Shown: positions 9,809 through 58,195 of the stretch, in pieces
How positions within the stretch are numbered: position 1 is the stretch's first letter
How the letters are laid out: every line of letters starts with the position of its first letter
Sequence record: MW394391.1
Strand: one strand, 5' to 3'
DNA from: Klebsiella phage vB_KpM_FBKp24
Length of the DNA stretch: 64,000 nucleotides
Notes under the pieces: generated by a model
What the model was told of the DNA's origin: nothing
Database searches by the model: none
What the model saw: the letters and a program-made list of their open reading frames with translations, nothing else
Made by a program: the position numbers and the translations under genes

Positions 9809-10429
9809 TTACAGCTTCTCACCTAAAGGATTGAATGGATCAATTCCTTCATCAATGGTGTCGTTGATAACGTCAAAGGTCGCAATCAATTCCATTTGCT
9901 GTTCCATAGTGAGATGTTCCTCTCCCTCTACGTCACAGGCGCCATAAACGTATTCGCTCCACCATTCACCTTTCTCATTCTTTTCAGCTACGCCGTTTCG
10001 GATTGCTGTCCAGTAAGGATCAGGAGTACCTGGGTCGTTAAACACAAATGCATCACGTTTAGCTCCCCACGCATGAGTAGACTGACGATTCCAAAGAGAT
10101 CGTGTACGTGGACTGCTCAGTAACCAACGACGCATGGCCATAGGCGCCGTTGCCACTTCTTCCGCAGAATCCAAGAACTGAATCACGTTATCGCGATACA
10201 AACCGCGTTTACTCCGATTCAATCTTTTCAGCTGGGTACGTACAGTGTCGTCGTATAACGACGAAATCATCGTTTTCGCTGAATTCAACATCCCTTTCGC
10301 ACGATCAGACAGATTAGAACTGAATCGTTCCAATCTTTCGTAGGACCGCTGGATATCTTCCCTGTCAGGTATTCCGAAAGCTGCAGCTCGAAAGACGGAC
10401 TCTCCGCCGTCGATGATTGCTATTTTCAA
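9809..10429 (-). CDS. hypothetical protein (206 aa), TTG start overlapping the RNAP gene stop (TTGA)
   Basis: GGGAGA SD 6 nt upstream of TTG. Confidence 0.55.
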   Translation of the reverse strand: MKIAIIDGGESVFRAAAFGIPDREDIQRSYERLERFSSNLSDRAKGMLNSAKTMISSLYDDTVRTQLKRLNRSKRGLYRDNVIQFLDSAEEVATAPMAMRRWLLSSPRTRSLWNRQSTHAWGAKRDAFVFNDPGTPDPYWTAIRNGVAEKNEKGEWWSEYVYGACDVEGEEHLTMEQQMELIATFDVINDTIDEGIDPFNPLGEKL

Positions 10430-11880
10430 TGGTGTCTCCCGTATAAGAAATTGTTAATCGTGGAACGCACCGGTTTTCCGATTTCCATGTTGTTATTCAA
10501 ACTCAGAGGTTTATTGAGATCGAAAGTTCCCGTATGCGGAGAAAGCTTACGTATAGCAATAAAGTCCTCACGTGAAAGAATAGGCATCCCGGCCAACTGG
10601 TCCCCATCGAAGTCACAGTTAGGAGCCTTAAGAATCAACAGACTAAGGCCGATTGTGTTATCGTGTGGATCTGTTTTGAACTTTGTTACAAATAGAGATT
10701 GAACCGAACGAAGGTTCAATGTCGGGTTTCGGCCCAGGATTTGTGGTAGGCCACGTTTACCCTGAAGCGTCGTGTATGGCGACCGTTCGATTAAACGATT
10801 GAGCATATCGTGCATATATGGATCATACTGCCCGACACAGTCAATGATAAAGCGCTCGCTTTGCGCCAGAGTTAAACCGTCCCGCATCAACATACCGAGT
10901 AAGTGCGTGTGATACAAGGTTACACCCATACCCCACGGCATGTGCATTTCCTCATAATCGTGAGCACCTGACAAAGAACTTACTACACCACGATAAGTGG
11001 GGCCGGTACGCGAACCGAAGATTTGCTTACGATACCACCCTGGCTTCGATCCCAAAACATTTTTGTCAACAAATTCACGATACGCAATCAACATAGTCAG
11101 TGCTTTGAATGTGTTGTGCTCTCGTGTATTTTGATACCGCGGTTCTTCTTTTCCCACCAAACCATAAATCGCTCTGGCTGCATCAATAACATTGACATAG
11201 CCTTCCGCGCAAAAACGCGTTTTGTTAGAAAGTTCAGTGATAATACTACGCCGTGAGGGTAACGGCAGGTATTGCGAGAACAGCAAATGTCTGTTGTTTC
11301 GCATGAAATCATAAACTTCCGTACGCTTTTGGTCTGGTTTGAAAACCGGCGCCGTCATCAACGTTTCCAGTATCGCATCGAAGTTATCAATGAAATGGTT
11401 ATACCCACGGGGAATTTCCAGTTTCTTGAATCGTTCGTAGATAACGCTATTGCGGTTCTTTGGTTCGTAACGCGTATTACAAAGCCATTCGATAGCGCTG
11501 AAGTCGTCTTGCTTAAAAGCGCGTATCAGCATATCGAGAGCATTAATACGCATAAATGCTCTGACCCCGTATGGGACGCGTATCCATACGCTTGATTCAA
11601 ACCCGCGATCAATCGGCGACATAACCTCGGTGTCACAATGTGGACAAACCGTGTTGGGGGTGTCAGGTTGCGTAGAGGTGTTATACCGGCCAGTGGTCAT
11701 CCCGCATTCGCAGGACGGTAATGTATCAATGACGTCCCCTTCGTACTCCGTCATGGTAAGTTCCCTGACGGGGTCAATCAATTCATACTCATCCGACCGG
11801 ATTTCATTGAGAATAATCGGCGGGCGTTTAAGCCGTTGGATATCTCTGTCGTAGTCAGGTAACGCGTAATAAATGCCCAT
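10426..11880 (-). CDS. phage multisubunit RNA polymerase beta-prime subunit, N-terminal fragment (split RNAP of phiKZ-like phages)
   Basis: N-terminal Cys4 zinc finger CECG...CPHC; catalytic loop NCDFDGDQLAG (compare NADFDGDQMA); ATG with GAGGGG SD. Confidence 0.8.
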   Translation of the reverse strand: MGIYYALPDYDRDIQRLKRPPIILNEIRSDEYELIDPVRELTMTEYEGDVIDTLPSCECGMTTGRYNTSTQPDTPNTVCPHCDTEVMSPIDRGFESSVWIRVPYGVRAFMRINALDMLIRAFKQDDFSAIEWLCNTRYEPKNRNSVIYERFKKLEIPRGYNHFIDNFDAILETLMTAPVFKPDQKRTEVYDFMRNNRHLLFSQYLPLPSRRSIITELSNKTRFCAEGYVNVIDAARAIYGLVGKEEPRYQNTREHNTFKALTMLIAYREFVDKNVLGSKPGWYRKQIFGSRTGPTYRGVVSSLSGAHDYEEMHMPWGMGVTLYHTHLLGMLMRDGLTLAQSERFIIDCVGQYDPYMHDMLNRLIERSPYTTLQGKRGLPQILGRNPTLNLRSVQSLFVTKFKTDPHDNTIGLSLLILKAPNCDFDGDQLAGMPILSREDFIAIRKLSPHTGTFDLNKPLSLNNNMEIGKPVRSTINNFLYGRHH

Positions 11881-11908: not shown

Positions 11909-11945
11909 CAAAAAAAGAAAGGACCGAAGCCCTTTCTTTTTATTT
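11909..11945 (-). terminator. intrinsic terminator (aaagaaagg...cctttcttt) followed by T7 on - strand
   Basis: 9-bp stem plus U-tract immediately after the 633-aa gene. Confidence 0.65.
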
Positions 11946-11964: not shown

Positions 11965-13866
11965 TTAACGGCCGAAACCGTAAGAAGCGCGAGAACGCGA
12001 ACGGAAACCACCGCCGTCGTAACCGTTAGACTCGTAGCGGGAAGTGTAACCACGACGAGACGTACGGTTGTCCTGAGAGATACCATCGGCGGTTACGACC
12101 ATACCAGCTTCGGACAGTGCGCGGGTCAGACCAAACAGCCAGTTGGCGTTCAGTTCAATCACGTCAGCACGGTCAGTGATCTGGTATTGACCACCGGTGT
12201 AGTCTTCGATGATTTTCTCGATCTGGTCCATACGGACAGCCAGATCAATGCCATCATCGTTCAGGCAGCGGTCGAAGTCGGCGACAACCTGCGGGGATTT
12301 CAGGCCGAAGTTGGTCAGGATTTCGTAGTAGCCGATTTCACGCAGGTCGCGTTTATGACCCTGTTCGTCAACCCAGGTACCGAGCATCTGCGGCATTTCG
12401 CGGATGATACCGACGTCGTACAGATCGTTGGTGTTCATGATCGCAGAGAAGCGCTTACCGGACACGTTATCTGCCGCATCGATCAGAAGATCGACCGCGT
12501 CTTTACGGTTCGGGTTGCTCATGTCGCAGGCATCCAGCAGCAGGTTCAGCATCGGCGTTACGATAGAGGTGCGCGGCACCTGAATCTGAACGATTTGGCT
12601 GTTTTCGCGGATGACGTTAGACACCAGATCGGCCCACTGGCTGTCGCTCAGAACTTCCGGTAATTTATCGAACTCGCCTTTCAGTTCGTAGGTCAGCGCA
12701 TCCGCAGTACGGAGCGCGCCTTTACCGGCGATCGGACGAAGACCCTGAATCAGTACCGGCTCAGTCATCAGTGCAGAGACCTGCGCCAGAGAGAACATCA
12801 GGTATTCCGGGATCGGGTGACATTTCAGCTCGCTGATAACCAGAGCGGCGCCATAGATACGGGTATCTTGGTCTTCCGGTTTTTTGCTACGGGAAGTGAA
12901 GAAGCTGTTGCTCGGCTCTTCTTCGCCTTTGTAGTACAGATCGACATGGCTAACAATGCCCGCCAGCTGAGTGGACTCACGCTCGGAAAGAACGTTAACC
13001 ATACCGCCACGACGTTCGTCACGCGGAGCGACCATCAGATCAACGACGATATCTGCGCGGTGCGGCAGGTCAGTGATGTCGTCAGCGATGTCGCCCTGGT
13101 GGAACGCGATGTTCGCCAGCAGATCGTTGTTTTTCAGGTCCAGTGCTGCAATGCTGAATTCGTTCGTGTTCAGCAGGCCGTTAACCGTATAGATGATCTG
13201 GTTGAATACCGCGCTGGCGATAGTTTCCAGTTCACTGTCGGTCGGTTTATCGTTCAGGATCGGAGAAGCAGCCAGATGCTGTACCGGACCTTTGAACGCC
13301 GGGTTGGACGCTTCGATCAGTGCGTCGAGAGAGTCTTTGTAACCCTCAGCTTCGTACTGGTCGTTTGCCGTAGTGGTGTAACGCACGGTCAGATCGCGGC
13401 TAACGGTTACGGCCTGTTTCGGCATGACGGTATTACCAACGAAGATTACGGTAGAAGCGAACACTTCACCGGTATCTTTCATGCGCGCTGCAATAACGGC
13501 CGCGTCCAGTTTCATCTGGGTTTCTTTGCCGATGGCCGGGGTTACGGTCCATTCTACCGCGCCGTTCAGGCTCAGGGCGGCGGCGTGTTGTTTCTGAATT
13601 TCTTTCGCCAGTTCGACGAATTTTGCTACGTCGCCTGCCGCAGAATTGAGAGACAGTACCGGCGCGTCTTTACGGAAGTTATAAGTAGAATTCACTTTTC
13701 TCTCCTGAGTGTTGGAAGAATCTTGGTTGGTGGTAGAACGGTTATAAGTACGGCGACGCTGATTCTGATCGCTACCGGCAGATTCGTTACCTGCGGTGTT
13801 ACGCGCTTCAGCTGCTTCAACAACGGTGTCTTTTTCTTGGTTGTGATCGTCATCACGTAAAGCCAT
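11965..13866 (-). CDS. chmA: highly expressed early protein (633 aa); candidate phage-nucleus shell protein (chimallin), alternatively a capsid protein
   Basis: size ~69 kDa; disordered N-terminal ~65 aa and RG/Y-rich C-terminal tail; strong GC3 codon bias; motif-1 promoter and strong terminator; PhuZ present in the same window. Homology was not verifiable here. Confidence 0.45.
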   Translation of the reverse strand: MALRDDDHNQEKDTVVEAAEARNTAGNESAGSDQNQRRRTYNRSTTNQDSSNTQERKVNSTYNFRKDAPVLSLNSAAGDVAKFVELAKEIQKQHAAALSLNGAVEWTVTPAIGKETQMKLDAAVIAARMKDTGEVFASTVIFVGNTVMPKQAVTVSRDLTVRYTTTANDQYEAEGYKDSLDALIEASNPAFKGPVQHLAASPILNDKPTDSELETIASAVFNQIIYTVNGLLNTNEFSIAALDLKNNDLLANIAFHQGDIADDITDLPHRADIVVDLMVAPRDERRGGMVNVLSERESTQLAGIVSHVDLYYKGEEEPSNSFFTSRSKKPEDQDTRIYGAALVISELKCHPIPEYLMFSLAQVSALMTEPVLIQGLRPIAGKGALRTADALTYELKGEFDKLPEVLSDSQWADLVSNVIRENSQIVQIQVPRTSIVTPMLNLLLDACDMSNPNRKDAVDLLIDAADNVSGKRFSAIMNTNDLYDVGIIREMPQMLGTWVDEQGHKRDLREIGYYEILTNFGLKSPQVVADFDRCLNDDGIDLAVRMDQIEKIIEDYTGGQYQITDRADVIELNANWLFGLTRALSEAGMVVTADGISQDNRTSRRGYTSRYESNGYDGGGFRSRSRASYGFGR

Positions 13867-13927
13867 CTTTAATTCTCCTAGGAGTTTAAATCAATTATAA
13901 TCGCGATTTCCGAAGATACTCATTATC

Positions 13928-13952
13928 TTCTTCATTATAGTGATATAGACGT
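13928..13952 (-). promoter_or_regulatory. motif-1 promoter-like element (CGTCTATATCACTATAATGA)
   Basis: consensus match 65 nt upstream of the 633-aa gene in an AT-rich divergent region. Confidence 0.5.
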
Positions 13953-14152
13953 TAAAAAAGTTTGAAATGGGTTATTTTATCATTGAAGATATAATAAGCC
14001 CTTCTTAGCAGAGAGTTCTGTTGAATAATCAACAATAACTTTCTACATATAATAGATTACTACGCCCAGTTGGGCTGTTCCTTCGTTATGAAGGATTTCT
14101 TTCATAGTATAGACTACTAACCTAAAAAAAGATTTTATACCGGAGAACGTCA

Positions 14153-15247
14153 ATGATTTCAGCTTTTGAACTTCTCAACCGTCAGTCCGTTAAAACGTTC
14201 TTCCCTGGTCAACTTACCGTCCTTCGAGGGAATGCCGAATTAAACTTAAGAAACATTAAACGACATTACCTTAACAGTATTCGTGCAGTGGACAGTGACC
14301 ATATCCTGATACAGATACTACAACATCTTCCTACCCGATTAGATCTTGATGACGAACAGTATTATCGTTACTGTCATTCCGCCAGTAAATTGACTCATCG
14401 TGCACTAAATTTAAACACCGAAACTGTCTTGTCGGGGCGAGCCAGTAAAGCCTGGTTTTACGGTCAGGGCATTACCGAGTTTTACATTGTAGAAGAATCC
14501 GATTTACCGTATCGCTTCGACGCTAAAAATTACTGGCGTGCTCTGACCCCTGTACGGGTACTTTCCCATCCGTTAACCGGACTTTCGTTCAATGCGCGTG
14601 ACGGAAGTCCGTTCAGTAAAGAGAAAGGGTTTGCATTTATCTCGATCGACATCGGTCTTTTGGCTGTTCAGTACCGGCATTGGGAGCTTTACAACAACGG
14701 TACGGAAACTCAACAACACCCTGTCTCCATTAACCAATTCATTTACCAGTATCCTTTGGTCAACATGATTGAAGGAGATATGGATTTTTGTTTCTTTAAC
14801 CGGTTAAGATTAAAGAAAGGTTTCATTGAAGAAAATGATGACAAAGCACGACATGGTCTCGCTATCATGGATTTACGACCGATGACGGACCGGGTATGGG
14901 ATGACTGGTTACAACGTGCTCAAACTGCGCCTAGAAGATTTATAGATCTCCCGGCACAAATCCCAGAACTGTTTGCAGATACCCTACTGGAAAGGATTAC
15001 CTTCCCGGACATTTTGTTTAACCGTCAAAACTTGGGTATTTACACGCTGGCAAATTTACCATACCTAAGTACCCTGTCCCGCCTTTCCGGCGAAACAGGG
15101 TCAAAGGATAACGGGTCAGTTCAAACCCAACTAGAACGATGGTATAACCGTTTTGTAAACGGTAACTATTTCCTTCCTATTCATGGCATCAATCCTCAAG
15201 GTACTCTACAGGTTCTTTTGGACGAAGTGCTGACTCCACTTCGTTAA
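14153..15247 (+). CDS. hypothetical protein (364 aa)
   Basis: ATG with GGAGAA SD. Confidence 0.65.
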   Translation: MISAFELLNRQSVKTFFPGQLTVLRGNAELNLRNIKRHYLNSIRAVDSDHILIQILQHLPTRLDLDDEQYYRYCHSASKLTHRALNLNTETVLSGRASKAWFYGQGITEFYIVEESDLPYRFDAKNYWRALTPVRVLSHPLTGLSFNARDGSPFSKEKGFAFISIDIGLLAVQYRHWELYNNGTETQQHPVSINQFIYQYPLVNMIEGDMDFCFFNRLRLKKGFIEENDDKARHGLAIMDLRPMTDRVWDDWLQRAQTAPRRFIDLPAQIPELFADTLLERITFPDILFNRQNLGIYTLANLPYLSTLSRLSGETGSKDNGSVQTQLERWYNRFVNGNYFLPIHGINPQGTLQVLLDEVLTPLR

Positions 15248-22119: not shown

Positions 22120-23088
22120 TTAGAATTCCATTCCATCGCCTTGCGTGTCACCCTGAATAAAGCTCTGCACTGCGACTGACTTTTTATCCCTTGCCATCCG
22201 GCGTTGTTCAAAGTCGTCGTAGGTTTTACGGAGGTCCGTCAGAATTTCATTCAAACCGTGAGTATGGATGAGGAAGTAAAGGGAATCTTCCCCTGACCGT
22301 TTACGTGAACCGTAGGTGTTGTAGTCAGCAGGAATAGTCCCGGTTGTGGGTTTATTGTCACCGTAAAGTTCCGCAACTGAGATGGGGGCGGTTACCTCCA
22401 ATGCGTCTTCTCGGTCCTGGAAAACTTCCAACAGTCCCAGCTCCGGTCGTACGCCTGCGCCAATCACTGGGCGTGCCCAAGTGAGGACGTCTGCTGAATC
22501 GAGACCGTGGTGTTTACCTGAATAGAGATCGAGGACTGCGCGAATGGTGGCAATCATAATCGCATCGACTTCTGCATTACGAACGTTGTTTTCGTTACTT
22601 TCAAACGCCACGTTCGCAAACTGATTGTTTTTGATCGCGATATTACGAATAGACGAAATAGTCTTCATCGTGTTTTCGGTTGTTTTCGCCGATTCGGTAG
22701 ATCCCACTAAAAAGACCAGAACGGCTTTCCCTTGGGCGTAGAGCCCCTCGATGAGTTTAGGGCCAATTACGGAGCCCGATCCACCGGACGCTGAAAAGAT
22801 CAGGATGTTCAGTTCTGAAGGTTTGAGTTTCAGAAGAATGTCGCTGATACTACGATCGGTAACGTCATAGTTAGTTTTACGGATTTTACCCGCGCCATCA
22901 ACCCCTTCCAGAAAATACCATTTATCTTGATCGACAACGGTGCGCTCAGAAACATTAGAACGGCTACCGTCAACGTAAGCCTCTCTTACGTTTGCCAGAT
23001 CCGATAGATCAGTACGCATCAGCTTGGTGAGGATGTCAATTCCCGCCCCGCCGGCACCGTAGATAGTTACTGTGTTATTCGACGACAT
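22120..23088 (-). CDS. phuZ: phage tubulin PhuZ (FtsZ/tubulin-like GTPase)
   Basis: N-terminal GAGGAG nucleotide-binding loop; T4-loop SASGGSGSVIGP (compare PhuZ SLGGGSGSVLGP); acidic C-terminal tail QGDTQGDGMEF; ATG with AAGGAG SD. Confidence 0.85.
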   Translation of the reverse strand: MSSNNTVTIYGAGGAGIDILTKLMRTDLSDLANVREAYVDGSRSNVSERTVVDQDKWYFLEGVDGAGKIRKTNYDVTDRSISDILLKLKPSELNILIFSASGGSGSVIGPKLIEGLYAQGKAVLVFLVGSTESAKTTENTMKTISSIRNIAIKNNQFANVAFESNENNVRNAEVDAIMIATIRAVLDLYSGKHHGLDSADVLTWARPVIGAGVRPELGLLEVFQDREDALEVTAPISVAELYGDNKPTTGTIPADYNTYGSRKRSGEDSLYFLIHTHGLNEILTDLRKTYDDFEQRRMARDKKSVAVQSFIQGDTQGDGMEF

Positions 23089-31887: not shown

Positions 31888-32208
31888 TTAGGAAATGTTT
31901 TTAACTAACCGCTTGAAGACGGCCGCGTTGGTAGTGAAGCAAACGATATTTACGGGTTCGACGTAACGATTGGTCAACGTGAAGATATAGTCGTCGTATG
32001 AGCGCAGTATTTTCAACGATGCTTCGTAGACGTCATGGTTCACCGTACGAACTAATACAACGGTGTTGTAAGTGTCACCAGGATTTTGAAGACGATCGCC
32101 CAACGAGTTGGCGTCATTGTGGGAAAAGATCAGCTCGATGGTGCGGACGTCGTTTGATTCAATGTCTTTGTCGAGAAAGACCACGGAGTTCATTTTTGAA
32201 AAACGCAT
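31888..32208 (-). CDS. hypothetical protein (106 aa)
   Basis: ORF. Confidence 0.5.
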   Translation of the reverse strand: MRFSKMNSVVFLDKDIESNDVRTIELIFSHNDANSLGDRLQNPGDTYNTVVLVRTVNHDVYEASLKILRSYDDYIFTLTNRYVEPVNIVCFTTNAAVFKRLVKNIS

Positions 32209-32269
32209 GATTAATCCTAATTAATTGAAAACGGAAACAAAGCGAGTACGACCTTTACCCGCCCCGTAT

Positions 32270-32593
32270 TTAATTGGATTCGAAGGATGTCTCCGAAAGT
32301 GCAATAATTTCTTCCAATCCATCAAGGATCACTCCGGCCGCAATAAGGGTTAGCTCTTCCCCAGATGGTGTTAGGTCACGAACAGAACCCCGCGCTGTTG
32401 ATACAGAAATTAGCATCCTTCTCACTTTGGTATTCATTATAAACACTTCGGTTAACGGTAGGTTGTAGAACACCTCTGCGCGCTGAGACAACTGGTAAGC
32501 AATTTCATTCTGGGAAATTTCCGTGTTCTTTACAGTGTCAAACCATGCCAGAATATCTTTAGCTGTTTCTACGGTTGTTTTTAAGTCAGCCAT
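32270..32593 (-). CDS. hypothetical protein (107 aa)
   Basis: ORF; begins at the duplicated divergent promoter module. Confidence 0.55.
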   Translation of the reverse strand: MADLKTTVETAKDILAWFDTVKNTEISQNEIAYQLSQRAEVFYNLPLTEVFIMNTKVRRMLISVSTARGSVRDLTPSGEELTLIAAGVILDGLEEIIALSETSFESN

Positions 32594-42811: not shown

Positions 42812-44881
42812 ATGTCTGAACAAATCACGGGATCAACACCCAGAATTTATTACCGTGGTACGAAGGATAGTTCAGTAACTCGTTCTACGGGTTCGACGAC
42901 TACCCTTCCGCTCCATCGGCCCTTAATCATGTTCTTCGGCCAAAAAGGCCCGACCGTTCCGACATGGATCGATCCGGTGAAATTCGAAGACATCTACGGC
43001 AGCGAAACCACCAATCTGTCCGGTGTTTACTGCACCCACTCCACCCCTTTCATCAAAGAAGCGATTGCAGCTGGTAATCAGTTCATGGCACTGCGTCTGG
43101 AACCGTCCGATATTCCAGATGTAGCAACCCTTGGACTTTCTGTTGATTGGGTAAAGACCAAGATTGACGACTACGAACGCAACGACGACGGTACTTATAA
43201 GCTGGATACTAACGGCGATAAAATTCCGCTCGCCACGCAAATTGACGGGATAAAATTCCGGTTCGTTCTCGAGAAAATCGAAACCAACGAATCCGGTGTG
43301 AGCCAGTATAAAAAACGTACGGCTAAAGCCGGGACCATCGGTACCGAAGCGACGCCGTCAACGATTACTCCGCTGGCCGATTTCCGTTGCCGTTTCAAAT
43401 CGTCGCTGGGCGCTAACACTGCGCTGCGAATCTGGGCACCTACGATTAACTCCGCGCAGGCTGCTGACGCCGATTTACAGGCTCGTATCAAATCCTTCCT
43501 GTATCGCTTCCAGATTCTGACCCGCGCAGATAAAGCAAGCTCACCGACGATTTTTGAGACCATCTATAATGAACCATCATTATCGGTCGGTTTCGGGGAA
43601 AATCTGGTTGATCCACAGACCGAAGTGGTCTACGACTTCGTTGAACGAATCGACAGTCGCTATAACGATGAAGACCCGTCCACTTACCTGATGTCGCCGC
43701 TGGATACGCCGTATCTGTATCAAGCCAACATCGATAGCGTTCTGACCGCCATCCAGGAACTGGAAGCGCCGTTCGACACAGTTTCTGCCGACGAAGATGA
43801 TCTGTATCAGATTAACCTCTTCGGGGCTCAAACCGTAGAAGGCGTCCCGTACCATGCGGTGCAAATCCTGGGTGTACTCGATGGTGGCGTTACGCTGACC
43901 GAAACGGCGACCAATTACCTCCAGGGTGGCGGTGACGGTACACTGGGTAACGACAGCTTTAACGCTGCAGCGTATGCGGTACTGTCGAATCTGAGCAATA
44001 ACGCGGCGTTCAATATCACCAACTATGCGCGTTATCCGTTCAACGCATTTTGGGATTCCGGTTTCGACCTGAAAACCAAACAAACTATTCCGCAGCTGAT
44101 CGGTTTGCGTGCAGACACCTGGATCGCGCTGTCCACGCAGGATATTTCGTCGGACTTTAACTCCAACGAAGAAGAAGAGTCTATTGCGCTCTCCTTGATG
44201 TCTCGCGTCTCTGCGTTCCCGGACTCCTCTGACTTTGGTACCCCGGCATTCCGCGGTATGATTGTCGGTGGTGCAGGGTACTACACCGAAACCACCCGTA
44301 AGCTGCCGGTACCGTTGACACTGGACCGTTTCCGTGCCTACTGTCGTTATGCAGGCGCATCTGACGGAGTGCTCAAACCTGAATACGCTGTCGACGAAGG
44401 TGATGCACGTAAGGTCCAAGTTGTGAAAAGTATCAATAACCTGGATAAATCGTGGCGTGTCCGTCGCGCGCAATGGAATAACAACCTGGTCTATGTGGAA
44501 GACTACGACACCAACTCCCAGTTCTATCCGGGACAACAGTCGTTCTACTCCGAACAAGGTTCTGTTCTCAAAGCAGCAATTGTCGGTTTGTGCGTAGCCA
44601 ACCTGAACCGTTTCGCGTTTGAAGCATGGCGTGATCTCACCGGTACTCAGAAACTGACCGACGACCAACTGATCGAACGGTCTGATGACGCTGTGAGTAC
44701 TCGCGGTACGGGCGCGTTTGACGATCGCCTGATCTTTACCCCGCATTCTGAAATCACTCAGGCGGATAAAGAGCGCGGTTACAGCTGGTCTATGCGTATT
44801 GACTTCGGTGCTAACGCATTCCGCACCGTGATGGATATGTCTTCTGTCGCATACACCAGAGAGGAATTAGCAAATGGCTAA
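42812..44881 (+). CDS. tail sheath protein (689 aa)
   Basis: size and position immediately upstream of a ~290-aa tube-sized gene; strong SD AAGAGG; GC3-rich codon usage; comparable in size to phiKZ gp29. Confidence 0.6.
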   Translation: MSEQITGSTPRIYYRGTKDSSVTRSTGSTTTLPLHRPLIMFFGQKGPTVPTWIDPVKFEDIYGSETTNLSGVYCTHSTPFIKEAIAAGNQFMALRLEPSDIPDVATLGLSVDWVKTKIDDYERNDDGTYKLDTNGDKIPLATQIDGIKFRFVLEKIETNESGVSQYKKRTAKAGTIGTEATPSTITPLADFRCRFKSSLGANTALRIWAPTINSAQAADADLQARIKSFLYRFQILTRADKASSPTIFETIYNEPSLSVGFGENLVDPQTEVVYDFVERIDSRYNDEDPSTYLMSPLDTPYLYQANIDSVLTAIQELEAPFDTVSADEDDLYQINLFGAQTVEGVPYHAVQILGVLDGGVTLTETATNYLQGGGDGTLGNDSFNAAAYAVLSNLSNNAAFNITNYARYPFNAFWDSGFDLKTKQTIPQLIGLRADTWIALSTQDISSDFNSNEEEESIALSLMSRVSAFPDSSDFGTPAFRGMIVGGAGYYTETTRKLPVPLTLDRFRAYCRYAGASDGVLKPEYAVDEGDARKVQVVKSINNLDKSWRVRRAQWNNNLVYVEDYDTNSQFYPGQQSFYSEQGSVLKAAIVGLCVANLNRFAFEAWRDLTGTQKLTDDQLIERSDDAVSTRGTGAFDDRLIFTPHSEITQADKERGYSWSMRIDFGANAFRTVMDMSSVAYTREELANG

Positions 44882-45749
44882 GAAAGATCCTAACACGATC
44901 ATGAGTGCTAATAGTTCGTACGCTAACGGGGCCAATGGTTCCGTTACTAACCTGGAGATCCCAGCAGCGTTCGGCTATACGCCTGATTTTCGTTACTACC
45001 ATGCTGCGGCCGATTATACACGTCGCCCAACAATCGCGTTCCTGATGGAACTCCCCAACTGTTTCAAAGACACCGATGATGCAGCGAAATGGGGCGGTTC
45101 CCTGAAAGCGTTAATCGAGATGCATTCTCGTACAATCGATGGCCTCGACTATACGTTGGAAGTGGAACACGTTGAAACGCCATTCGGTGGCGGCGGCGAA
45201 ATGATGCAGACCTTGTCTAAGGTTCGTCGTGCTCGCTCGGTCCCGGTGTTTACCTGGGTGGAAAAAATCGGGATGCCGGTTTCCCGCTTCTGGAACAACT
45301 ATATCCTCTACTTCATGGGTGAACCTAACTCTAACGTAGCGGGTATTATCGGTAAAGGTGGAATCACTCCGGCCGCAACTTATCCGGATTATAACACTTT
45401 CTCCGTACTCTTCGTTGAACCGGATCCTACCGAACGTTACGCACTGCGTTCTACGTTGATCACCAACATGCAACCGACCGGACAAGGTCCGGAAATGCGC
45501 ATGTCGAAAGACCAGACTTCTTCGCCAGAACAGCTTCAGATCTCTCAGACCTTTACGGGTCTTCAGATGGTCGGTCGCGGTGTTGACAAACTGGGCCAGA
45601 TGATGCTCGATCGCGCATCACAAACCGGTATTGACCTGAATGCTCAACCGGCATTCCTCTCAGACCGTGAAGCCGACGTCGCTGCACGTACTGACGGTTA
45701 TATCGATCAGCTTGTCTCTTCGTTATCCAAACCGGGCGTGGCAATCTAA
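44874..45749 (+). CDS. tail tube protein (291 aa)
   Basis: follows the sheath gene with an 8-nt overlap; size matches phiKZ-type tube; strong terminator after it. Confidence 0.55.
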   Translation: MAKKDPNTIMSANSSYANGANGSVTNLEIPAAFGYTPDFRYYHAAADYTRRPTIAFLMELPNCFKDTDDAAKWGGSLKALIEMHSRTIDGLDYTLEVEHVETPFGGGGEMMQTLSKVRRARSVPVFTWVEKIGMPVSRFWNNYILYFMGEPNSNVAGIIGKGGITPAATYPDYNTFSVLFVEPDPTERYALRSTLITNMQPTGQGPEMRMSKDQTSSPEQLQISQTFTGLQMVGRGVDKLGQMMLDRASQTGIDLNAQPAFLSDREADVAARTDGYIDQLVSSLSKPGVAI

Positions 45750-53339: not shown

Positions 53340-53687
53340 TTACGCAGTTGCAACGCCAGCTTCGTCAACAGAAGCTTGAGTCGTTTCAACCGGTGCAGTT
53401 ACATCGCCGCTTTCTTTTGGGAAAAGCAGCGCCTTCAGGTTTTTGTAAGTGTCGGTGACGTAGGTCACGATCAGCAGACCCGCTACCATATATGCCGCGA
53501 CTTCGACCGCCAGGCTCAGGAAGAAGATTGCGAAGAAGATCAGGATCGCCATCAGAATCGTGTCGAATACGAAGCTACCTAACGCTTTACCCTTCTCAGT
53601 GATAGAGTAGGTAGTGCTTTCGGTATCGCCTTCAACGACAGTTTCTTTAGCGACGAATTGTGCGAAAAACGATTTGAATTTGTTCAT
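53340..53687 (-). CDS. membrane protein (115 aa), GC3-rich codon usage
   Basis: hydrophobic central segment. Confidence 0.5.
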   Translation of the reverse strand: MNKFKSFFAQFVAKETVVEGDTESTTYSITEKGKALGSFVFDTILMAILIFFAIFFLSLAVEVAAYMVAGLLIVTYVTDTYKNLKALLFPKESGDVTAPVETTQASVDEAGVATA

Positions 53688-57742: not shown

Positions 57743-58195
57743 TTAGGCAGCATAGGCTTTTTCAACCCCCAATAAAATTTCCCCGAGTTTCTCACCGGTA
57801 ATATCCCCTAACCCTTCGATAAAAGATTGAAGGGCGCTGACCCCTAGTTTAAGATTACGGGAAGGACCAGCCCAGTAATTAAGGGAAAGTGAAATATAAA
57901 AACACTCTGGCGCGAAGCGAATGCCTGAGCTTTTTACGCCAGGCGTGACATGGAACAGCGGAACGAACGGTATTTTATTCGCCGATAGACCGTTAACAAT
58001 TTCGTCCCCGTTCTTTATTGGGAACAGGTCATGAAAACTGATAACGACAGATCGGTTTTTGGCTTTGACAAACAATCCGAAGTTGATACGTAATTTATCG
58101 GCATTACTAACCTGAATAAAGTCGCCGAATTCGGCTTTGTTCCGTTTGGTCCAAAGTGCATTACGACCTTTAAAAGTACAAAGCATTTGAATCAC
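57743..58195 (-). CDS. hypothetical protein (150 aa)
   Basis: ORF. Confidence 0.5.
   Translation of the reverse strand: MIQMLCTFKGRNALWTKRNKAEFGDFIQVSNADKLRINFGLFVKAKNRSVVISFHDLFPIKNGDEIVNGLSANKIPFVPLFHVTPGVKSSGIRFAPECFYISLSLNYWAGPSRNLKLGVSALQSFIEGLGDITGEKLGEILLGVEKAYAA

Follow-up and report, generated by a model that had tools for sequence, protein, structure and literature searches.

The chimallins of phages 201phi2-1, Goslar and phiPA3 self-assemble from tetramers into a square lattice around the phage DNA (PMC9365700). The 201phi2-1 protein has a dispensable N-terminal tail (residues 1-47), an N-terminal segment (NTS, 48-61) that docks inside the tetramer, an alpha/beta N-terminal domain (62-228), a GNAT-like C-terminal domain (229-581) and two segments at the C-terminus through which tetramers are joined to each other (CTS1, 590-611, and CTS2, 622-631); deletion of the NTS or the CTS abolished assembly in vitro, and the faces of the shell are negatively charged (PMC9365700). 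Chimallin is gp54 in PhiKZ (PMC9365700). In the Serratia phage PCH45, an mEGFP fusion of gp202 was seen to surround the phage DNA as a shell from which Cas complexes are excluded (10.1101/782524). Here we analysed a stretch of 64,000 nucleotides from Klebsiella phage vB_KpM_FBKp24 (record MW394391.1; this whole stretch is called the window), and we propose, with a probability of about 0.95, that one of its genes encodes chimallin (ChmA), the major phage-nucleus shell protein of a Klebsiella chimallivirus.

The open reading frame (ORF) of this gene, called here the shell gene, starts with ATG and encodes a product of 69.9 kDa with a pI of 4.8. The protein matched the Pfam family PF25677 (Chimallin_Phikzvirus) with 66.4 bits (E=1.9e-18; curated cut-off 27) and PHROG 4795, 'nuclear shell protein', with E=4.3e-44 over residues 19-608, and a single-sequence search of the PDB matched phiPA3 PhuN and 201phi2-1 chimallin with E of about 1e-6. 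A word-indexed homolog search, carried out earlier, had given nine relatives, and its repetition with their alignment added none; an exhaustive search gave 242 related clusters at 50% identity, those listed being nearly all full length. The family alignment and profile used here contained 117 members with a median length of 630 aa. When compared with the PDB, this profile matched chimallins only, and from end to end (8fne, 1.8e-121; 7sqt, 1e-105; 7sqq, 1.4e-104). The signature residues of the family (P268, R270, D272, F473, G496, D507 and R509) were all kept in the shell protein.

The predicted structure pointed to the same family. A first AlphaFold model, built from 10 sequences, reached a predicted local distance difference test score (pLDDT) of 62, and its significant PDB matches were nine chimallin chains only. 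It was replaced by a second model built from the 117 sequences, with a pLDDT of 84.5 and a predicted template modelling score of 0.82. The second model matched nine chimallin chains of 201phi2-1 gp105, phiPA3 PhuN and Goslar ChmA with E values from 6e-29 to 1.5e-23, target-normalised template modelling (TM) scores of 0.73-0.82 and 539-583 alignment columns, and its best match to a structure other than a chimallin had E=0.085. The model showed a compact two-domain core as in 201phi2-1 gp105 (PMC9365700), and the 50 PDB matches listed for each model included no HK97 capsid protein. On its sequence profile and predicted fold, the shell protein is thus a member of the chimallin family.

These results agree with an earlier note on this DNA, made from the letters alone, which had put forward the 633-aa ORF as a candidate chimallin and preferred ChmA to a major capsid protein. 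The ORF was found as described, on the minus strand, which that note had not given. The structural comparison with chimallins that it proposed was carried out and returned only chimallin chains as significant matches, and the HK97 fold that it named as the contrary outcome did not appear among the matches listed. Its description of both ends of the protein also held. The N-terminal 65 or so residues, which it had called disordered-looking and rich in Q, N, S and R, contained N9, R8, T7, A6, D6, S6, Q5 and E5 as the commonest residues, and in the second model the pLDDT of residues 1-68 stayed under 50; the tail that it had called RG/Y-rich contained R8, S7, G7 and Y4 in residues 597-633 (pI 10.8).

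Alignment with nine homologs divided the protein into segments that followed the order of those of the solved chimallins (Table 1). Residues 1-52 were poorly conserved (mean identity 0.25, 22% gaps) and correspond to the dispensable N-tail (1-47) of 201phi2-1 chimallin. Residues 53-76, which are mostly unstructured in the monomer model, were about as well conserved as the core (mean identity 0.55, 2% gaps), and by analogy with the NTS this segment may dock on a neighbouring protomer within the tetramer. The core (residues 77-590, mean identity 0.56-0.63) consisted of an alpha/beta N-terminal domain up to about residue 235 followed by a larger C-terminal domain, the one that is GNAT-like in the solved chimallins (PMC9365700). 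It was acidic (pI 4.56), in agreement with the negatively charged shell faces of 201phi2-1 (PMC9365700).

The C-terminal tail had the appearance of a low-complexity sequence, yet within the clade it was largely more conserved than the core: mean identity was 0.53-0.73 over residues 591-633, with 0.73 for 591-612 and 0.69 for 622-633. Its pLDDT was low to moderate, with parts of 599-633 below 50. Residue 604 aligned with residue 594 of the 201phi2-1 protein, inside CTS1. Glycine and aromatic residues were abundant in the tails throughout the family, and among the 117 diverse members R605 was kept in 88% and G630 in 76%. As judged from conservation and alignment, the N-tail, NTS-like and CTS-like layout of the chimallins is present in the shell protein, and the C-terminal tail would, as in the solved chimallins, lace neighbouring tetramers together.

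The shell gene had the strongest codon bias of the 84 genes called on the window itself, which were used for all codon statistics because the coordinates of the related phage Centimanus are not transferable from about 30 kb onward. Its G+C content at third codon positions (GC3) was 0.616 (other genes, 0.464 +/- 0.049; z=3.1), and its fraction of enterobacterial optimal codons (Fop) was 0.816 (other genes, 0.51 +/- 0.08; z=3.9), both the highest of the set. Proline was always encoded by CCG and leucine by CTG in 83% of the cases, and the codons GGA, GGG, CGA, CGG and ATA were absent. Together with this Fop, the gene has a strong Shine-Dalgarno sequence, a promoter motif shared with non-virion RNA polymerase (nvRNAP) genes and a terminator of its own, which are indirect indications of early and very abundant expression. 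The next most codon-optimised large genes were a tail sheath gene (42812..44881, plus strand, Fop 0.68) and the adjoining virion structural gene (44874..45749, plus strand, Fop 0.66), which would be expected because they encode abundant virion proteins; both were well under the 0.82 of the shell gene.

The genes around the shell gene were those of a chimallivirus: two nvRNAP subunits, the tubulin PhuZ, a DNA polymerase, and a gene order shared with related phages. The gene directly downstream encodes a homolog of phiKZ gp55, the beta'-N subunit of the nvRNAP (PDB 7ogp_A, 'PHIKZ055', E=1.2e-63; PHROG 2987, E=8e-145), and the gene cut at the start of the window encodes a phiKZ gp71-like nvRNAP beta subunit (PDB 7ogp_C, E=3e-81). 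As chimallin is gp54 in PhiKZ, the adjacency of gp54 and gp55 is preserved in this phage. The product of the phuZ gene matched the Pfam tubulin and TubZ_C families just under threshold, and its counterpart is annotated 'tubulin PhuZ' in Centimanus. The order DNA polymerase gene, divergent gene of about 360 aa, shell gene, gp55-like gene and two small genes was common to the window, PCH45, KpLz-2_45 and Moabite. The divergent neighbour (14153..15247) gave a weak match to a PHROG of 'virion structural protein', and its homolog in Moabite is annotated 'virion-associated head protein'. This gene (364 aa, plus strand) and the DNA polymerase gene (minus strand) are convergent and overlap at their 3'-ends by 59 nt (15189..15247); similar overlaps of 41-62 nt between the two genes were seen in PCH45, KpLz-2_45 and Moabite.

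A jumbo-phage gene of this size and with such strong codon optimisation might also encode the major capsid protein or another head protein of the HK97 fold, and the divergent neighbour, with its weak virion match and the head-protein label of its Moabite homolog, offers further circumstantial support for such a function. However, the Pfam and PHROGs searches of the shell protein returned no capsid family, the family profile matched chimallin alone in the PDB, and the listed matches of both models, which lacked any HK97 structure, included chimallins with E down to 6e-29. A capsid function was therefore rejected at the level of the fold on the profile and structural evidence, and we give it practically no credence. 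Hardly more credible is an active GNAT-type acetyltransferase or a toxin-like enzyme, a reading that starts from the C-terminal domain of chimallin, whose fold is like that of AtaT. The weaker first model did give marginal matches to Rtt109 (E=0.3-0.5), but no acetyltransferase family was found in Pfam at E up to 1, neither model had a significant match to any acetyltransferase in the PDB, chimallin is reported to be without the active-site residues of AtaT (PMC9365700), and signals for bulk-level expression fit a structural protein. The enzymatic reading was also rejected on the profile and fold evidence.

It seems very improbable, if somewhat less so, that the protein has the chimallin fold and plays an accessory role at or in the shell, the main lattice protein being another. 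The divergence from the solved chimallins, to which the protein is 15-20% identical, would allow this, as would a C-terminal tail whose richness in arginine is specific to the clade (R+K 22% in the close clade vs 11% in the other family members). Against it, the protein is full length and carries all the segments of the family, and its gene bears the strongest expression signals in the window, as expected of a bulk structural component; PCH45 gp202, which is similarly distant, does form a shell. In Centimanus and in each related genome just one chimallin homolog was found (one place per record), so that no other gene could supply the lattice and the shell gene must do so, in line with its exceptional codon optimisation and with a promoter and a terminator dedicated to it. 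We thus keep the chimallin assignment, against which some considerations have to be weighed besides the 15-20% identity just mentioned. The roles given to the tails draw on conservation and on a model of the monomer, in which docking would not be visible; the assignment of the promoter described below to the early class leans on the genes downstream of the motif, several of them without assigned function, and on analogy with jumbo phages; and localisation, transcript timing and assembly in this phage are taken from homologs.

Table 1. Positions of the shell gene, its segments and signals, and selected neighbouring genes in the window
Feature	Position	Strand	Basis or remark
Chimallin (ChmA, nuclear shell protein) coding sequence, 633 aa + stop	11965..13866	-	ORF, profile and fold matches
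Disordered N-tail, codons 1-52	13711..13866	-	pLDDT about 40; poor conservation
NTS-like segment QERKVNSTYNFRKDAPVLSLNSAA, codons 53-76	13639..13710	-	conservation among homologs
Two-domain folded core, codons 77-590	12097..13638	-	pLDDT mostly above 90; TM 0.73-0.82
Basic RG/Y-rich C-terminal tail, CTS1/CTS2-like, codons 591-633	11968..12096	-	conservation, alignment
Shine-Dalgarno sequence TAGGAG, 8 nt before ATG	13875..13880	-	read directly from the sequence; identical in KpLz-2_45
Predicted leader hairpin GAAGAUA-AUGAG-UAUCUUC, 7 bp	13912..13930	-	directly 3' of the promoter motif
Promoter-like motif TATATCACTATAATGA (TATATCAC-TA-TAATGA, 'motif-1')	13932..13947	-	81 nt before the shell ATG
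Other copies of the motif (position of 5' T)	497, 5653, 21982, 30639, 35150, 60533	-	TATATCAC-NN-TA-N-TGA
Upstream block kept in KpLz-2_45	14039..14056	-	sequence comparison
Upstream block kept in KpLz-2_45	14079..14095		sequence comparison
Intrinsic terminator, 13-bp stem, UUCG loop, U run	11910..11941	-	after the shell gene
nvRNAP beta'-N subunit (phiKZ gp55 homolog)	10426..11880	-	directly downstream; PDB 7ogp_A, PHROG 2987
PhuZ tubulin	22120..23088	-	8.25 kb from the shell gene; PHROG 4733 'tubulin PhuZ', E=8.8e-81

The promoter-like motif was evaluated over the whole window. An unbiased count of words gave eight intergenic occurrences of TATATCAC vs one within coding sequence, and the pattern TATATCACNNTANTGA (TATATCAC-NN-TA-N-TGA) had 10 matches in the window vs 1.35 expected, a number that none of 100 shuffled sequences reached. 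Seven good copies lay on the coding strand, six of them 39-109 nt upstream of called genes. The gp71-like nvRNAP beta gene has its copy 84 nt upstream, at 497, and the remaining five precede the genes of a 513-aa protein of PHROG 3209, of a phosphohydrolase and of three products without a family match; no recognisable virion gene was found behind any copy in the window. The block AAACTTTTTTnACnTCTATATCAC...TGAAGA around the motif of the shell gene was kept in KpLz-2_45, where DNA identity is about 78% in this region, and a recognisable version of the motif, AAACTTTTTTCACGTCTATATTCCTACTATGAAGA, precedes the shell gene of Moabite, whose shell protein is 35% identical. According to a review of jumbo-phage RNA polymerases, the detectable motifs centred near -10 are early promoters, read by the virion RNA polymerase (vRNAP), in every phage profiled (PMC7598289). 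Because of the genes preceded by the motif, and by analogy with these profiled phages, it is reasonable to suppose that the motif of the shell gene is an early promoter read by the vRNAP. A host promoter of the sigma-70 type was considered and rejected, as a scan of the region gave just one site vs 3.4 expected and it lay inside the divergent gene. As a by-product, TATATCAC-NN-TA-N-TGA represents a well-supported candidate consensus of early promoters for this group of phages.

The hairpin that directly follows the motif is predicted also in KpLz-2_45, with one compensatory change of an A-U to a G-C pair, and in Moabite a hairpin of other sequence occupies the same position. The whole leader of the window phage folds no better than shuffled sequences (z=0), the support for the hairpin thus being three sequences and one covarying pair; it might possibly act as a stabilising stem-loop at the 5'-end of the messenger RNA (mRNA). 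The entire 286-bp intergenic region upstream of the shell gene is identical to that of Centimanus. One of the two blocks kept farther upstream is TCTATTATATGTAGAAAG, found also before the shell gene of Moabite and without a repeat elsewhere in the window, and the other is a hairpin, TCCTTCATAACGAAGGA, with CTATACTATGAAAGAA before it. These blocks could be additional promoters or signals of the divergent gene. The conserved upstream word CTATTATATGTA was tried as a second class of promoter and discarded, since its six matches in the window vs 4.9 expected mark it as a local block only.

Downstream of the shell gene, the 65-nt stretch containing the terminator folds at -17.5 kcal/mol (z=-3.2). 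The terminator is kept in KpLz-2_45, and in Moabite a terminator is annotated at the same place. About 30 nt separate its end from the ATG of the gp55-like gene (11880), an arrangement that is found in KpLz-2_45 and Moabite as well. Such a gap leaves no room for a separate promoter, so the gp55-like gene would owe its expression either to read-through or to a promoter within the shell gene; it probably depends on read-through of the terminator. What the earlier note had said of expression and genomic company was thus found again: the strongest GC3 bias in the window (rank 1 of 84), a copy of motif-1 of its own upstream of the gene, a strong intrinsic terminator, a phiKZ-type split RNA polymerase, represented by the gp55-like and gp71-like genes, and a PhuZ gene some 8 kb away.

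The second most codon-optimised gene of the window was a different one, an ORF of 115 aa (53340..53687, minus strand; Fop 0.80, GC3 0.56). Its product contains the hydrophobic stretch FVFDTILMAILIFFAIFFLSLAVEVAAYMVAGLLIVTYV, which probably forms two membrane helices; it had no PHROG match, and a holin-like match in Pfam was below threshold. This ORF may encode a very highly expressed small membrane protein.

Taking 201phi2-1 gp105, the Goslar protein, phiPA3 PhuN and PCH45 gp202 as the homologs on which the steps are modelled, the shell gene might work as follows. The injected vRNAP would transcribe it early from the TATATCAC...TGA promoter, and a strong ribosome-binding site and host-optimal codons would lead to very high translation. 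The acidic two-domain cores would assemble into tetramers, with the NTS-like segment (residues 53-76) holding them together, and the basic tail (591-633) would reach onto neighbouring tetramers to give a flexible square lattice. The lattice would enclose the replicating phage DNA and keep out host nucleases and CRISPR-Cas complexes. Finally, the terminator would yield much shell mRNA and less read-through transcript for the gp55-like subunit, so that the shell protein would be made in large excess over this polymerase subunit. In this scheme, the early timing and the assembly of the shell would both be as in the described homologs.

The tail could do more than lace tetramers together, because across the Klebsiella/Serratia clade it is conserved above the core and is about twice as basic as the other tails of the family. 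It could be an RGG-like RNA-binding element, or an electrostatic element, at the pores of the lattice, with a part in mRNA export or in the recruitment of partners. A separate suggestion is that the three blocks conserved upstream stand for more than one class of promoter, driving the gene across the whole infection. We regard these suggestions as unlikely.

A tblastn search of phage records showed that the shell protein is already known. Over all 633 residues it is 100% identical to CENTIMANUS_00154 (CAM8750757.1), a protein of Klebsiella phage vB_KpM_Centimanus (OZ240615.1) that carries the annotation 'nuclear shell protein'. The two genes differ at 11 nucleotides and all 11 differences are synonymous; the shell gene is under purifying selection. 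Orthologs about 80% identical were found in KpLz/KpZh and related Klebsiella phages of the genus Siatvirus. The KpLz-2_45 ortholog (MOA67_gp315, 1501..3402 of L005, NC_061418.1) is still a 'hypothetical protein' in RefSeq, the orthologs in several records of Serratia phages bear the same label, and these labels could be updated to chimallin. In the literature we found no paper that names Centimanus or discusses the shell in this group of Klebsiella phages, and a paper that deals with Klebsiella jumbo phages of a 'novel genus' mentions neither the shell nor PhuZ nor the KpLz phages. The shell gene belongs to a known family and is an ordinary example of it, and the analysis brings no new biology of the phage nucleus, the family, the structure and the annotation of the exact protein being already public. 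It confirms that the Klebsiella jumbo phage of the window belongs to the nucleus-forming Chimalliviridae. In members of this family, the phage DNA should be protected against restriction and DNA-targeting CRISPR systems, a property relevant to phage therapy against Klebsiella.

Compared with the described systems, the locus is closest to Centimanus, which has the same neighbouring genes and is 97.8% identical to the window over 61.9 kb with a few insertions or deletions (near 32000-32460, 55500 and 57800-58100); the window comes from a sister isolate of vB_KpM_Centimanus, other than that of record OZ240615.1. KpLz-2_45 (Siatvirus) has a shell protein 80% identical, with about 78% DNA identity over 8 kb around the gene, and Moabite (a Serratia phage, Moabitevirus) has the one 35% identical, which is labelled 'nuclear shell protein'; both phages keep the promoter block, the position of the leader hairpin and the terminator. 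PCH45 gp202 is 24% identical over 85% of its length (E=6e-39). As here, its gene order ends with genes of about 206 and 131 aa after the gp55-like gene and its host is an enterobacterium, whereas PCH45 differs in having an additional small gene in front of the shell gene, a protein of 659 aa and a genome of 213 kb instead of about 300 kb. The solved chimallins, 201phi2-1 gp105 (7sqq, 7sqr, 7sqs, 8igg), Goslar gp189 (7sqt, 7squ, 7sqv) and phiPA3 PhuN (8fne), have about 631-634 aa and about 70 kDa, as in the window. They share with the shell protein the acidic core of two domains, the disordered N-tail, the NTS-like and CTS-like segments and the gp55-type neighbour; in contrast, the C-terminal tail of the shell protein is markedly more arginine-rich than the average of the chimallin family.

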